Shown here: positions 10,288 through 16,691 of the stretch, piece by piece
Position numbering within the stretch: the stretch's first letter is position 1
Layout of the letters: every line of letters begins with the position of its first letter
Assembly (NCBI GenBank): GCA_963841735.1
Contig: CAWJDT010000001.1
Span: 1,024,001-1,088,000, forward strand
Direction: 5' to 3'
Length of the DNA: 64,000 bases
From: an uncultured Actinomycetes bacterium
GTDB lineage: Bacteria > Actinomycetota > Thermoleophilia > RBG-16-64-13
Notes under the pieces: model-generated
Databases searched by the model: none
Told to the model about the DNA's origin: nothing
What the model saw: the letters and a program-made list of their open reading frames with translations, nothing else
Made by a program: the position numbers and the translations under genes

Positions 10288-10617
10288 CTACTTGCGCGTG
10301 AGGGTCTGTTTGTCGCCTTCTGGGCTGGTGAAGGTGAGCTTGTCACCGGCGACTTCGTAGCCCATGCTCTCGGGGAAGCCCCCTCCTGGGACTCCAGTGA
10401 TAAAGACCTTGCCGTCTCTTGTGGAGTAGGTGGCCTCCGCCTTATCGCCCGCAAAGTCGATGACGAAGGCGCCGTCGGAGGTGAACGTGAACTCCGTCCC
10501 GGAGCTGTCGCTCCAACTGCCGACGATGTCGCCCCCTCCGCCGCACGCTGCCAACAACAGCGCCAGGGCCGAGACCAGGCAGGCAGTCACCACCAGGGGC
10601 ATCCAAGATCTTTTCAT
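10288..10617 (-). CDS. Small lipoprotein (lipocalin/DUF5640-like)
   Basis: Lipobox LAAC; IVGSW...FTFTSDG. Confidence 0.75.
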   Translation of the reverse strand: MKRSWMPLVVTACLVSALALLLAACGGGGDIVGSWSDSSGTEFTFTSDGAFVIDFAGDKAEATYSTRDGKVFITGVPGGGFPESMGYEVAGDKLTFTSPEGDKQTLTRK

Positions 10618-10699
10618 GCCAAACTTTCCCCTTGTTCTGTTTAAGTGGAGCACGCGAAGCTTACCAGGCCGGACGCGACGCACAGGCAAGGAGGAACGG

Positions 10700-11305
10700 G
10701 TGGCTGCGAAGCAAGAGATTGGAAGGGGCTACGGTCGACTCGACCGTGAGGAAGTGCGCCGCCGGCTGCGCGAAACCTGCTCGGCGGTAGATCTTAGCCT
10801 GCCCTCGCCCGAGCCCGGCACGCCTGCGGGGGTGCTCATAGGGCTACTCGGGCATCCTGGTGACCCACACGTCATCCTAACCCGCCGCACCGCGCATCTG
10901 AAGAATCACGCCGCTGAGATCAGCCTTCCTGGGGGGCGGATAGAGGCTGGCGACGCCGGACCGGAGGCGGCCGCCCTGCGGGAGGCCTTTGAGGAGATCG
11001 GGCTGCCCTCCGATAGGGTGGACGTACTCGGCTGCCTTCCTCCGTCTCTGACGGTGTCTCAGTTTCGGGTATATCCGTTTGTGGGCTGGATCGAGCCGCC
11101 GCTGGACTACGTCATCGACGCATATGAGGTTGAGGAGGTCTTCGAGATCCCGCTCAGCTTCGTCCTCGAGCAGGCCAACCACCACTGGGACGAGGCCGTG
11201 TTTGCCGGCCGGCGACATGGGTTCTACGTGCTTGACTATGCGGACCACCGCATCTGGGGAGCCACCGCCGGCATCTTGGTCAACCTAGCCGAGGCCCTAC
11301 GCTAG
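10700..11305 (+). CDS. Nudix CoA pyrophosphatase (NudL/PCD1-like)
   Basis: ILTRRTAHLKNHAAEISLPGG, ALREAFEEIG Nudix box, IWGATA. Confidence 0.92.
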   Translation: MAAKQEIGRGYGRLDREEVRRRLRETCSAVDLSLPSPEPGTPAGVLIGLLGHPGDPHVILTRRTAHLKNHAAEISLPGGRIEAGDAGPEAAALREAFEEIGLPSDRVDVLGCLPPSLTVSQFRVYPFVGWIEPPLDYVIDAYEVEEVFEIPLSFVLEQANHHWDEAVFAGRRHGFYVLDYADHRIWGATAGILVNLAEALR

Positions 11306-11309
11306 ATGA

Positions 11310-11366
11310 GCGCGCGGCCCAGGCCGCGCGCGGGGCGGTAGCGGGGGCCAGGCTTGCCGCCCCGCT
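11310..11366. terminator. GC-rich hairpins between convergent genes
   Basis: GCGCGCGGCC-ca-GGCCGCGCGC followed by GCGGGGCGG...CCGCCCCGC. Confidence 0.5.
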
Positions 11367-11391
11367 GGCCAGTGGCTCCGTACTGCGGGGT

Positions 11392-12984
11392 CTACGGGGA
11401 GGCCACGCCGAGATAGGTCCGGACATCGCTCACTTCGAACCCATATTGGGTGGCCAGGTCGCTCAGCGTCGAACCGAGGGACGTGTCGGCGGGGATCCCG
11501 AACTCCTCTAGGAAGGCGGCGAAGTCGTCCACCACAGCCTGGATCTCTCCCAGGGTGGTCTTGCCTTTGATCTCCGCGGTCGCTCCCGAAGAGGACCCTT
11601 CGTCCCCAGCGGGCACGGTGCTGGTTGTTGTGGCAGGCTGGCCGCCGTCGGTCGTGACGGTGGGCTCCTCCCCGAGGCCGACTCCTGTGAGCAGATACAG
11701 TCCGGCACCAGGGGGGCCGTCGCGTAGTAGGTCTCTGAGTGTCGCCGTACCGGGGAGTCCGGTGGAAGCCATGACTTCAGCCAACCGGTCCGCAGGCACA
11801 CCTGCCAGGCCCAATGTGTCCAGGGGTTCGTCGATATAGCGGGCGATATCGCGCAAGACCTCCGGTTCGATGTTGTTCTCCAGGCTTTTGAGTTGGGTGG
11901 ATGCGGCCAGGTCGGGAGCGAGACCCAGACCGTTGTAGAGCTCCTGTTTGGTGATGCCGTAGTTCTTGATGACCTCTTCGAGGGTCGTGGAACCCTTGAT
12001 GTCATCGGGGGTGCGGAAGTCACTCTTCTTGGTGGTCTGGAAGTCTCCCGTTATGTTCGTGATGAGGATAGGCAGCACGAAGGCGGCGATGGCGATAGCG
12101 GCAAAAACTGCCATGGGTACAGAGCGCCGGCGGCTTCCGCCAGTGGCGCTCGTTGCCCACCGCCGCCGCGTCCATACGTACAACCAGGTGTGTAGCTTAA
12201 GGGTGTCGCGGTCTCTCGTGTTCTGTGGGCAGGCGTCGACGCACTTGAGGCATCGGGTGCACTCGATGCTGCGTACCGCCGGGCTTGTCGCCACTTCGAT
12301 GTTGACCGGGCAGACCTTTGAGCAGCGGCCGCAGTCGGTACAGGTCTCGGCGTCTCGTTTGATGCCCATGATAGAGAACGAGTTGAAGAGCCCGTTGAAG
12401 GCGCCCAGGGGGCAGGCATAGCGGCTAAAGGGGCGGGGGATGAACAGCGCCGCGAGCAGGGTGACGCCGGTGACCACATAACCCGAGATGGCGATCTCAT
12501 CGGTCCAGATGCGATAGAGGTTCCAGTAGGGGTCCCAGTCTTGAAAGACGAGGGTGACGCTGCGCGCGGTCTGTACCAGCACCCAGGCAAGCACGGCCCA
12601 CTTGAGGTACTGGAGAAACCGCTCGACCCGGCGCGGTACTCTGTTGTACAAACGCGGCCAGAGCCTGCGGCCGATGCCGCCGAGTCCCTCCTGCACCGAC
12701 CCAAGCGGGCAGATCCATCCGCAGAACGATTTCCCTGTGATCACCAACCCTATGAGCAAGGCCAGCAGCATGATGAACACTGCTGAGTGCAACTTGGCGA
12801 CATATCCGCCGGTCGAGAAATAAGTGTACAAATTGACCACGCCACCGAACGGGCAGATGGTGTGGAGATTGGTAGACCATGCTGTGCCCACGGTGGTCGC
12901 GATGGCCACAACCAGCACATAAGCGGCGATCGCCGCCTGCACGCTGTGACGGAGGATCTGTATGGGTGGCGGTTTTCTGGCCAT
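11392..12984 (-). CDS. Membrane 4Fe-4S binding protein (NapH/MauN/YccM-like) with extended C-terminal domain
   Basis: TICPFGG, FCGWICPLG, FSRYACPLG, CTDCGRCSKVCP, CTRCLKCVDACP; GAGGAG upstream. Confidence 0.88.
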   Translation of the reverse strand: MARKPPPIQILRHSVQAAIAAYVLVVAIATTVGTAWSTNLHTICPFGGVVNLYTYFSTGGYVAKLHSAVFIMLLALLIGLVITGKSFCGWICPLGSVQEGLGGIGRRLWPRLYNRVPRRVERFLQYLKWAVLAWVLVQTARSVTLVFQDWDPYWNLYRIWTDEIAISGYVVTGVTLLAALFIPRPFSRYACPLGAFNGLFNSFSIMGIKRDAETCTDCGRCSKVCPVNIEVATSPAVRSIECTRCLKCVDACPQNTRDRDTLKLHTWLYVWTRRRWATSATGGSRRRSVPMAVFAAIAIAAFVLPILITNITGDFQTTKKSDFRTPDDIKGSTTLEEVIKNYGITKQELYNGLGLAPDLAASTQLKSLENNIEPEVLRDIARYIDEPLDTLGLAGVPADRLAEVMASTGLPGTATLRDLLRDGPPGAGLYLLTGVGLGEEPTVTTDGGQPATTTSTVPAGDEGSSSGATAEIKGKTTLGEIQAVVDDFAAFLEEFGIPADTSLGSTLSDLATQYGFEVSDVRTYLGVASP

Positions 12985-13008
12985 TCTCACTCCTCGATGC
13001 GGTTTAGC

Positions 13009-13815
13009 CTACCCGGCCAGCGTGGCCGCGAATACCTGCCAGGCTAGGAGCGCCTTGGCGGTGAGGCTCAGGATGATGTAGATCTTCTCGCCAAAGAGAT
13101 AATCGCGCCAACGGCCCACCTGTTTGTACTGCAGCACCATGTTGACGGCGAAGATGTTGAAGAACACAAAGAGCGACGCGATGATGCCGTACACGAACCC
13201 GGGCGGATTTGCTCCGCTGAGCCCCGGGCTGACGACATAGACCACCACGGCGATCCACGGGATGATGCCGGCGAAGCAGCCGAACAAGAAGGGCAGCCAA
13301 TTCGGGTTGCCCGGCCTCTCGTACTTCTCCATGAGGAGCCCGAACAAGATCATGCTGGCGTTCACGCCGAAGATCGCCAGCAAGGCCGCGATGTCGCTAA
13401 CGCCGCAGATCATGACGATGAGCACGATCATGAGTGAAGACGTTATGGAGTACTCGATCCACCGTCCGTAGTTGCGCTTCTGCAGCAGGTTGCGCTTGTA
13501 CCAGCCGAACACGCCGGGAGAGGCCATGATGAGCAGGGCCAGACCCGACAGGGCCAGGAAGGCGAACACACCCCAGGCCAGCGGGAAGTCGCCCAACTTG
13601 GTCGGCGCGCCGACCGGCGTTCCCGGAGGGCCGGTCATGAAGTTGCCCACCACCGGCAGGCTGAAGTCGGTGGAGAGGACCGCGATCACCGCAGCCTGGG
13701 CCAGCAAGACCGCGCCCACCACGGTGTTCCACCAGCGCAGTTTGCGCAGGCGCCTCTCCATATCCCCGTTGCTCGTGAGCTCTTTCAGCTCTACGGTGCT
13801 CTCTGTCGCTGACAT
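13009..13815 (-). CDS. heR: Heliorhodopsin (HeR), 268 aa
   Basis: GPPG, RWIEYS, GVNASMILFG, PGFVYGI, LQYK, GEKIYIILSLTAK (retinal Lys); AGGAGG RBS before ATG 13815. Confidence 0.95.
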   Translation of the reverse strand: MSATESTVELKELTSNGDMERRLRKLRWWNTVVGAVLLAQAAVIAVLSTDFSLPVVGNFMTGPPGTPVGAPTKLGDFPLAWGVFAFLALSGLALLIMASPGVFGWYKRNLLQKRNYGRWIEYSITSSLMIVLIVMICGVSDIAALLAIFGVNASMILFGLLMEKYERPGNPNWLPFLFGCFAGIIPWIAVVVYVVSPGLSGANPPGFVYGIIASLFVFFNIFAVNMVLQYKQVGRWRDYLFGEKIYIILSLTAKALLAWQVFAATLAG

Positions 13816-13840
13816 GGCCCTCCTCCTGTGTTGTGTTTTC

Positions 13841-15826
<1,986 letters not shown>

Positions 15827-15959
15827 AGTGGTGCGCTCGCTTGCTCGATTGGGGTGCTCGTCGGTGGAGATGGCAGAATCGTACTCTCGACATGTTTACC
15901 TTGCCACCGGTCGAGCTAAACAGAGCCGATGGGTCTTCGTAGGGGAAGAACGGGGAAAG

Positions 15960-16691
15960 ATGAACCCGCAAGACAGAGATGGCAGAGGTCAAGTGGGCGG
16001 GATGCAGGCGGAAGCACTACCACGACAGGCGGCCTGGCTGGACCTCGGTACCGAGGAGTACGGTCGGGCCTATGCTATCCAAACGAAGCTGCACACTCTA
16101 CGACTGGCCAGGGCGATCCCCGATAGCGCGGTGGTGCTCGAGCACGCTCCCTGCATCACCCTTGGCCGGGCTGCGCATCGCGAGCACATCCTCGCCGGCC
16201 GGGAGCAATTTGAGGCCGCGGGGGTTGCCGTGTACAACACCGATCGGGGAGGCGATGTCACCTACCATGGCCCGGGGCAGCTCGTCGTGTATGCCTTTGT
16301 CGATCTCACCGGCTACGGCAAGGACGTGCACGCTCACGCTCGCCGCCTAGAACAGCTGCTCATCGACGTGCTGGGATCCTACGGAGTCGAGGCGGGTAGG
16401 AAGAGCGAGTATCCCGGGGTCTGGACCGATGAGGGCAAGATCGGGGCCATCGGCATCAAGGTGAAGCGCTGGGTCACGTTGCACGGCGTGTCACTCAACG
16501 TTTCACCCGATATGAGTCACTTCGGGCTGATCGTGCCCTGTGGCATCGATGACCACCCGGTTACCTCGCTTGCCCGGCTATTGGGGCATCCTGTGGAGAT
16601 CGCCGAGGTCAAGCGGGGTCTGAGGAAAGCGTTCGAGCGCGTCTTCGGCGTCAGACTGGTCGATGTCGAAAGGGCTGCGCTGGGGCTGTAG
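15960..16691 (+). CDS. lipB: Lipoyl(octanoyl) transferase LipB
   Basis: LEH..CITLGR, DRGGDVTYHGPGQLV, KIGAIG, HGVSLN, IVPCG; start could instead be 16002. Confidence 0.92.
   Translation: MNPQDRDGRGQVGGMQAEALPRQAAWLDLGTEEYGRAYAIQTKLHTLRLARAIPDSAVVLEHAPCITLGRAAHREHILAGREQFEAAGVAVYNTDRGGDVTYHGPGQLVVYAFVDLTGYGKDVHAHARRLEQLLIDVLGSYGVEAGRKSEYPGVWTDEGKIGAIGIKVKRWVTLHGVSLNVSPDMSHFGLIVPCGIDDHPVTSLARLLGHPVEIAEVKRGLRKAFERVFGVRLVDVERAALGL

Follow-up and report, generated by a model that had tools for sequence, protein, structure and literature searches.

A heliorhodopsin with leucine in place of both cavity histidines in an uncultured Thermoleophilia bacterium, and a possibly recurrent replacement in its family

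What does a heliorhodopsin do once both histidines of its Schiff-base cavity are gone? The question is raised by a gene on the minus strand of a 64,000-nucleotide stretch of DNA (hereafter the window; contig CAWJDT010000001.1, positions 1,024,001 to 1,088,000, assembly GCA_963841735.1) from an uncultured bacterium of the Thermoleophilia. A sequence-only reading had recognised that the equivalents of both histidines in the encoded protein are leucine, and had proposed a distinct subfamily with either altered photochemistry or a function unrelated to light. We find the gene to be intact and ordinary for its kind: it belongs to a heliorhodopsin variant of which the type member was already expressed and measured. 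The biology of the proposal, a distinct clade with altered photochemistry, was right, yet it was already in print.

The histidine positions and the Leu/Leu clade

The gene's frame (268 codons) is open throughout, from an ATG at 13815 to a stop codon at 13011..13009, and close homologues, 264–268 amino acids long, align with the entire query (100%) when it is read from this ATG. The encoded protein matches Pfam family PF18761 with an E-value of 4.4e-96 (321.3 bits against a cut-off of 26.7; residues 26–266 span model positions 1–242 of 242) and the NCBIfam equivalog NF038020 'heliorhodopsin HeR' with 318.7 bits against a cut-off of 100. A phmmer search of the Protein Data Bank (PDB) matched six distinct sequences, every one labelled heliorhodopsin. 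The 48C12 chains (6su3, 6uh3, 9ljj) gave E-values of about 2e-77 and 263 bits and the TaHeR chains (6is6, 7clj) about 5e-54, compared with 3e-37 and 131.6 bits for chain 9vfc, which is labelled merely 'heliorhodopsin'. A structural model made by AlphaFold2 from 35 clade members contains seven long helices, and its AB loop forms a beta hairpin (strands 56–58 and 71–73). In a Foldseek search the model's top ten matches were all 48C12 or TaHeR, with template modelling (TM) scores of 0.69–0.71, and type-1 rhodopsins followed with E-values of at least 0.027. Directly before helix 1, residues 21–27 include five arginines or lysines, in agreement with the positive-inside rule as set out for 48C12, a protein of inverted topology with a cytoplasmic N-terminus (Kovalev et al. 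2020).

The protein was aligned by HMMER (phmmer) to the solved 48C12 and TaHeR sequences. Query residue 21 pairs with 48C12 residue 7 and no gap occurs before residue 199, so that His23 of 48C12 falls on Leu37 and His80 on Leu94. His23 and His82 of TaHeR (6is6) share the same two columns. The alignment thus bears out the replacement of both histidines, and direct reading gives the two codons, TTG and CTG, exactly where the sequence-only reading had placed them (Table 1). The residues it had listed as retained are also paired with their 48C12 equivalents: R118, E121, Y122, the glutamate and serine of transmembrane helix 7 (E243, S250) and the retinal lysine K254 correspond to R104, E107, Y108, E230, S237 and K241. 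N30, S90, Y106, N115, W119 and E163 (48C12 N16, S76, Y92, N101, W105 and E149) are kept as well, and the helix-3 counterion is a glutamate accompanied by both serines (Glu121, Ser90 and Ser250; 48C12 Glu107, Ser76 and Ser237).

Overall, the window protein is about 51% identical to 48C12 (PDB 6su3, 6su4, 6uh3) over 243–247 columns with one single-residue gap, and the two have in common the counterion, the lysine, the serines, the Arg/Glu network and a long AB loop. They differ at His23, His80, Ala19, Ser111 and Gln213 of 48C12, which are Leu37, Leu94, Val33, Thr125 and Met226 in the window protein. Methionine at 48C12 position 213 is a frequent variant (Kovalev et al. 2020). The cavity histidine pair, typical of heliorhodopsins but outside any formal definition of them, is absent here. 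Kovalev et al. describe His23 and His80 as highly conserved and important for proton transfer, the sole exception that they mention being one member of subfamily 2 with asparagine at both sites.

The replacement is shared by the closest database relatives. A search of 5.8 billion proteins gave 7621 of 8000 scored candidates with E-values of 1e-10 or lower. Among the best 120, which are 68–100% identical to the query, leucine occupies both sites in every one, and R118, E121, Y122, S250 and K254 are likewise unchanged in 120 of 120. At the level of genomes, with one genome taken per species, 561 stretches encode a relative; the best 80 comprise 76 loci with Leu/Leu and four with His/His, in each case with the glutamate and the lysine. 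Another 20 loci came from the window's own genome and its relatives (15 Leu/Leu, five His/His). Across these 100 loci, all six leucine codons are found at each site: at position 37 CTG 38 times, CTC 32, CTT 9, TTG 8, CTA 3 and TTA 1, and at position 94 CTG 51, CTC 13, CTT 12, TTG 8, CTA 5 and TTA 2. The leucine is held while the codon drifts, and both sites are therefore under purifying selection for leucine. Sequencing error and a pseudogene are ruled out by the open frame, the full coverage of the family model, the 120 of 120 Leu/Leu relatives and the use of all six codons. The sequence-only reading had argued against an error on the ground that the codons are at least two changes away from histidine. 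Its conclusion stands, and the argument holds for the window's own codons (two to three changes), but not for the CTC and CTT codons common in relatives, from which CAC and CAT are a single change away. One change at each site was therefore enough for the original switch from histidine to leucine.

In a FastTree phylogeny of 114 rows (those outside 235–320 amino acids left out), the Leu/Leu group of the window protein forms one clade (27 of 27 rows, support 99), as had been predicted. The clade persists (26 rows, support 99) in a FastTree phylogeny of 224 rows from which columns 37 and 94 were removed and rows outside 240–300 amino acids left out. The clade branches from within His/His proteins with 57–62% identity to the query, some of them from the same bacterial family. 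The residues that distinguish it from its sisters are, in 48C12 numbering, V19, L23, A31, F70, A74, L80, K93 and G103 (211 clade rows, seven sisters and 80 others, again within 235–320 amino acids). Lys254, Glu121, Ser90, Ser250, Trp119, Tyr122, Met129 and the remainder of the retinal pocket are invariant within the clade.

The record titles for the best 80 loci refer to Thermoleophilia, Gaiellales, Actinomycetota or Actinomycetes, and Dehalococcoidia or Dehalococcoidales (a complete Dehalogenimonas genome is among the last), and other taxon labels are attached to a few bins. The isolate names indicate bog, fen, permafrost, lake sediment, groundwater and Danish soil surveys. As judged from these sequences, the window protein belongs to a large natural Leu/Leu lineage whose hosts, Dehalococcoidia and Thermoleophilia-like Actinomycetota, come from peat, soil, sediment and groundwater. 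The Dehalococcoidia proteins (loci L013, L029, L054, L070, L075 and others) form a subclade beside Thermoleophilia (L016, L052, L072) within an otherwise actinobacterial clade, which points to transfer of the heliorhodopsin gene between the two phyla. By its description, the lineage looks like cluster 'C5' of Bulzu et al., for which the accessible part of that paper gives sediment sequences of Coriobacteriia and Thermoleophilia, including nine from Dehalococcoidia.

Within the host group the gene is patchy. The window's own genome (2.82 Mb, eight contigs, 89.7% complete) has one heliorhodopsin, and of 15 genomes from the same genus 11 gave a match, as did 19 of 24 from the same family. Some genomes of the same genus (G010, G014 and G003) have more than one match each: G014 encodes two full-length heliorhodopsins, 76% and 71% identical to the query, and the second copy in G010 consists of two adjoining pieces (213041-213457 and 213456-213812) and looks frameshifted or broken. 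In two close relatives (L100, from the same-genus genome G009, and L101, from the same-family genome G023), the group A Leu/Leu protein is replaced by a group B, TaHeR-like His/His protein that is 49–51% identical to it. Related hosts therefore appear to exchange heliorhodopsin types, as the accessible part of a preprint by Chazan et al. (bioRxiv 10.1101/2021.02.16.431466) notes for Planktophila.

Photochemistry and proposed function

A Leu/Leu heliorhodopsin has already been characterised in that preprint, to whose accessible text the following statements refer. HULAa30F3 was recovered by functional screening of a peat-lake library from Lake Ha'Hula, on a Dehalococcoidia fosmid (the fosmids of the study are GenBank MW122873-MW122884). 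It is a group A protein (equivalent to subfamily 1) in which both conserved histidines are replaced by leucine. It absorbs at 562 nm, which made it the most red-shifted natural heliorhodopsin then known, yields retinal oxime on bleaching and is reported not to pump protons. Its photocycle has a long-lived O intermediate and less of the M intermediate than that of 48C12 or TaHeR, resembling the TaHeR H23F/H82F mutant, and the low level of M is attributed to the missing histidines. The same point is repeated in the accessible part of a 2024 preprint on Geodermatophilaceae rhodopsins. In the literature searched, mentions of Leu/Leu heliorhodopsins were found solely in these two preprints. The altered photochemistry anticipated by the sequence-only reading is thus documented for a Leu/Leu protein; the variant is common and described, as that reading had allowed it might be, but the photocycle is not a normal one.

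HULAa30F3 and the window protein are alike in being group A proteins with both histidines changed to leucine; the host class of HULAa30F3 is one of the two in which the window protein's clade occurs, and its habitat is peaty. They differ in host: that of HULAa30F3 is a member of the Dehalococcoidia, whereas the nearest loci to the window protein are from Gaiellales and other Thermoleophilia, a different phylum. The TaHeR H23F/H82F mutant is a second point of comparison. Its two histidines are also made hydrophobic, and it still forms M, which accumulates to a lower level (Shihoya et al. 2019, as cited by Chazan et al. and in the accessible part of PMC9726877). It is, however, an engineered Phe/Phe form of a group B archaeal protein and is without the side changes that accompany natural Leu/Leu.

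We consider it probable that the product of the window gene is a working group A heliorhodopsin (subfamily 1 of Kovalev et al.) that binds retinal and has Leu37 and Leu94 in place of His23 and His80, and that it acts as a photosensor with a low-M photocycle and scavenged retinal. By analogy, we infer that it behaves like HULAa30F3 in spectrum, photocycle and lack of pumping. In this scheme, light would isomerise the Lys254-bound retinal, and Glu121 would receive the proton of the Schiff base. In ordinary heliorhodopsins, the proton is proposed to continue to the histidines, and the accessible text of a quantum mechanics/molecular mechanics (QM/MM) study (PMC9726877) gives the path as Glu107 to His80 to His23, on which the protonated histidines would set Trp246 and the Asn16/Tyr92/Glu230 gate in motion. 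That relay is absent from the window protein, so the deprotonated M state would accumulate little. All that retinal binding and isomerisation require is retained, as is the remaining polar network of the cavity. With only the histidine pair gone, the cavity should be smaller and less polar, and M, with no histidine for the proton to rest on, would be poorly stabilised and either short-lived or sparsely populated. With HULAa30F3 and the TaHeR double mutant as models, a long-lived O state would be expected to dominate the cycle. O would probably be the signalling state, acting towards a soluble or membrane partner, and absorption would probably be red-shifted to near 560 nm. For other heliorhodopsins, those parts of the literature that were accessible describe two kinds of output: proton transport in one viral protein, and partners that are bound and regulated, namely glutamine synthetase, photolyase and an ABC transporter.

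Squalene/phytoene synthase (SQS_PSY, PF00494) was found neither in the window's own genome, at 89.7% completeness, nor in any of 24 genomes of the same family, in a search whose control matched eight of 14 known genomes. The own genome and 19 of the 24 nevertheless have a heliorhodopsin. An RPE65-type oxygenase was not found in the own genome either (the control matched two of 14). As no carotenoid pathway was detected, retinal is probably taken up from outside and the host probably scavenges it. Two genomes of the same class but another family (G035 and G040) contain both a squalene/phytoene synthase and a heliorhodopsin.

The lack of a detected pathway could also be taken to mean that the light function has been lost and that the protein now does other work in the membrane without retinal, for example structural or in transport. 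The origin of many hosts in sediment, peat and groundwater, and the importance for proton transfer that Kovalev et al. give to the missing pair, would agree with such a loss. In the retinal pocket, however, the lysine, the counterion, Ser90, Ser250, Trp119, Tyr122, Met129 and the rest are invariant throughout the clade, and HULAa30F3, with the same two leucines, binds retinal and cycles (Chazan et al., accessible text). Missing retinal synthesis is moreover the rule among hosts whose only rhodopsin is a heliorhodopsin, most of which are without it (Bulzu et al.). We therefore consider a loss of the light function, the non-light alternative of the sequence-only reading, to be very unlikely.

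Replacement of the histidines might instead have produced a light-driven or light-gated ion transporter. One viral heliorhodopsin, V2HeR3, transports protons (eLife 2022, PMC9448325, accessible part), and the side changes show that the cavity of the Leu/Leu proteins has been remodelled in a coordinated way. Against this, none of ten heliorhodopsins, HULAa30F3 among them, changed the pH under light in the experiments given in the accessible text of Chazan et al. Two leucines would lower the polarity of the cavity and not raise it, and the query scores only 131.6 bits to the 9vfc chain compared with 263 to 48C12. A transporter of the V2HeR3 kind is extremely unlikely.

Several points weigh against the proposal of a retinal-scavenging photosensor with a low-M cycle. 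HULAa30F3 is presumed to fall in the window protein's clade because it is described as a group A Leu/Leu protein of Dehalococcoidia, and the window protein is only 65–71% identical to the Dehalococcoidia members seen. The structural model is of moderate confidence, with a mean predicted local distance difference test (pLDDT) score of 69.9 and a predicted TM-score (pTM) of 0.67, and serves as a check of the fold and not of cavity geometry. BCD (Blh) and type-1 rhodopsin gave no matches in searches that had no positive control, so that these absences are weak. Lastly, no conserved partner gene emerged from the surroundings of the 100 loci, where NUDIX, MarR and DegV genes were counted 15, 10 and five times.

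Recurrence of the paired replacement

To place the Leu/Leu proteins in the wider family, we examined 90 representatives of clusters formed at 50% identity (those shorter than 230 amino acids left out). Position 94 is histidine in 80 of these and position 37 in 61, and as pairs there are 58 His/His and only three Leu/Leu. Where position 94 is histidine, position 37 can instead be tyrosine (five), phenylalanine (four), leucine (three), or asparagine, aspartate, glutamate or glycine (one each). All three Leu/Leu representatives (P0123, P0209 and P0218) are frameshifted gene calls whose C-terminal thirds are misframed and lack the lysine; two of them looked related to TaHeR. A census made from representatives alone would therefore misjudge the Leu/Leu proteins, and these three were left out of later trees. 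When the intact N-terminal 186 residues of P0209 were used as the query of a second search, 119 further proteins were listed: 63 with Leu/Leu, glutamate and lysine, 52 with His/His, two with Phe/His and two partial rows with leucine. None of the 119 has Leu/His or His/Leu.

On the FastTree phylogeny of 224 rows, the 112 His/His and 87 Leu/Leu rows require five changes from one state to the other, and the well-supported branches force at least four. The Leu/Leu rows fall into five groups: 26 rows, including the window protein, and 17, 1, 2 and 41 rows. A quick IQ-TREE search under a site-heterogeneous model, with 67 chosen rows and six trait columns removed, requires six changes, and its starred branches force at least five. 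A single origin of Leu/Leu, with all 24 Leu/Leu rows held as one clade, was rejected by the approximately unbiased (AU) test (log-likelihood 205 lower, p 8e-46), as was a single origin within group B, with its 14 rows as one clade (log-likelihood 77.9 lower, p 0.002); in both tests, the groups were named after the tree had been seen and the rows are a chosen subset. One placement disturbs this tidy picture. The His/His row P0122, with a branch length of 1.67, lies inside the group A Leu/Leu clade in the IQ-TREE phylogeny (support 88). In the 114-row FastTree phylogeny it lies outside that clade, and we read its placement as a long-branch artefact. From these trees, at least five separate lineages in the samples may have made the switch: that of the window protein in group A, and four TaHeR-like lineages of Actinomycetota in group B.

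The leucine pair does not come alone. At 48C12 position 19 (Val33 in the window protein), the 87 Leu/Leu rows have valine 75 times, threonine 11 times and alanine once, whereas the 112 His/His rows have methionine (64), alanine (20), leucine (14), valine (nine) or isoleucine (three). Valine is the majority residue at this position in all five Leu/Leu lineages and methionine in the His/His sister groups. Threonine at position 111 is found in 63 of 87 Leu/Leu rows compared with five of 112 His/His rows, and glycine at position 77 in 52 compared with three. Phenylalanine at position 74 is kept in only ten of the 87 and in 74 of the 112. The valine change goes in the same direction in about 4.7 of five independent pairs (sign test, p 0.0625), where five pairs cannot reach 0.05.

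The two histidines also differ in how freely they are lost. Among the 224 rows, 18 have His at position 94 together with another residue at 37 (F, Y, L, N, D, A or G), and only two have His at 37 with another residue at 94 (HQ and HP). His37 with Leu94 was not seen in any row of any sample examined. This suggests, from the distribution of residues, that His23 may be dispensable on its own and His80 not, and that loss of His80 would lead to leucine at both sites. Such an order fits the QM/MM picture, in the accessible text of PMC9726877, of His80 as the first acceptor after Glu107.

Whether all of this amounts to a recurrent second design of the cavity seems to us evenly balanced. In such a design, the paired switch would always be to leucine and would bring with it Met19 to Val, Ser111 to Thr, Ala77 to Gly and the loss of Phe74; the pair would be ordered, with His80 essential; and Leu/Leu would be a selected, alternative photocycle that is common in bacteria of soil, peat and sediment. 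We found no published statement of this recurrence, and Leu/Leu proteins beyond those in the main texts may already appear in supplementary Fig. S5 of Chazan et al. and Figs S8, S10 and S19 of Kovalev et al.

Gene neighbourhood and significance

The features of the window that are discussed here are collected in Table 1.

Table 1. Coordinates of the heliorhodopsin gene, its key codons and the adjoining genes within the window
Feature	Coordinates	Strand	Basis
Heliorhodopsin gene, Leu/Leu type, 268 amino acids (P0001)	13009..13815	-	Open reading frame (ORF), translation, PF18761, NF038020, match to 48C12
Shine-Dalgarno-like purine run AGGAGGAGGG before the heliorhodopsin ATG	13818..13827	-	Direct reading
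Codon 33, Val (48C12 position 19), side change recurring with Leu/Leu	13717..13719	-	Comparison of Leu/Leu and His/His rows
Codon 37, TTG = Leu, at 48C12 His23	13705..13707	-	Direct reading and alignment; Leu in 120/120 best relatives
Codon 94, CTG = Leu, at 48C12 His80	13534..13536	-	Direct reading and alignment; Leu in 120/120 best relatives
Codon 121, GAG = Glu, Schiff-base counterion (48C12 Glu107)	13453..13455	-	Reading and alignment; invariant in 120/120
Codon 125, Thr (48C12 Ser111, counterion-holding residue), side change recurring with Leu/Leu	13441..13443	-	Row comparison
Codon 254, AAG = Lys, retinal attachment site (48C12 Lys241)	13054..13056	-	Reading and alignment; invariant in 120/120
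ftsH	13841..15826	-	Peptidase_M41, AAA, FtsH_ext; TIGR01241 758.6 bits; ends 25 nt upstream of heliorhodopsin start
NapH/MauN-like membrane ferredoxin, long C-terminal extension	11392..12990	-	Fer4_5, Fer4_7; starts 18-24 nt after heliorhodopsin stop

The gene downstream of the heliorhodopsin scores 94.9 bits to the NapH/MauN profile, under the cut-off of 213, and is therefore not a standard NapH. Its membrane and 4Fe-4S part covers about residues 30–260, and about 270 residues without a Pfam or NCBIfam match follow. A consensus scan of 11000..16200 gave no sigma-70-like promoter and no minus-strand terminator. Given the short gaps on the same strand and the lack of such sites, the ftsH, heliorhodopsin and ferredoxin genes are probably co-transcribed as one unit.

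This arrangement would suit a heliorhodopsin that regulates its neighbours, the FtsH protease or the NapH-like ferredoxin, with a link to redox state or an anaerobic life. No terminator-like site lies on the minus strand between the genes, which are separated by 25 and 18-24 nucleotides; the closest relative, L083, likewise has ftsH upstream, and a 63%-identical fragment of the NapH-like gene is found about 1.1 kb downstream in L093, of the same genus. Elsewhere in the clade the neighbours are different. FtsH is encoded near the gene in none of the best 80 genome loci, and the NapH-like ferredoxin in one, as a weak match of 27% identity. Among the loci of 19 relatives, ftsH adjoins the heliorhodopsin gene only in L083. 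Even in L083, whose heliorhodopsin is 89% identical, the NapH-like gene and a DUF5640 lipoprotein gene are missing and a NUDIX gene directly follows the heliorhodopsin, so that the arrangement in the window is local and recent. A conserved operon with ftsH or the NapH-like gene is therefore ruled out, and the tie to this operon that the sequence-only reading had raised for the Leu/Leu variants is not supported. Regulation of these neighbours by the heliorhodopsin is very unlikely. In the window, the heliorhodopsin gene is separated from NUDIX and acyltransferase genes by the NapH-like gene and a DUF5640 lipoprotein gene (10288..10689); L083 has neither of these two at the corresponding position, and this segment (10288-12990) marks a recent insertion or deletion.

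No universal neighbour of the Leu/Leu heliorhodopsins was found in the 100 loci, where the neighbouring ORFs were picked by the crude procedure of G+C content at third codon positions (GC3). The commonest neighbours were an unnamed membrane protein (16 loci) and the small NUDIX gene on the same strand directly downstream, followed by a MarR regulator directly upstream and DegV, which the accessible text of Chazan et al. gives as the family most associated with heliorhodopsins.

Taken alone, the window gene adds little, as it is one more member of a Leu/Leu variant that has been measured. The part that deserves the attention of specialists, and that may be new, is the paired switch with its convergent side changes. 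The role of His23 and His80 is still debated, and they have been seen as proton acceptor, as relay or as structural residues. A recurrent paired switch with compensating changes would provide ready-made natural mutants, and comparison of Leu/Leu proteins with their closest His/His sisters, which are 57–62% identical and in some cases from the same family, could show what the histidines do. The same comparison could show whether a red-shifted photocycle with little M is an adaptation to dim habitats rich in organic matter.

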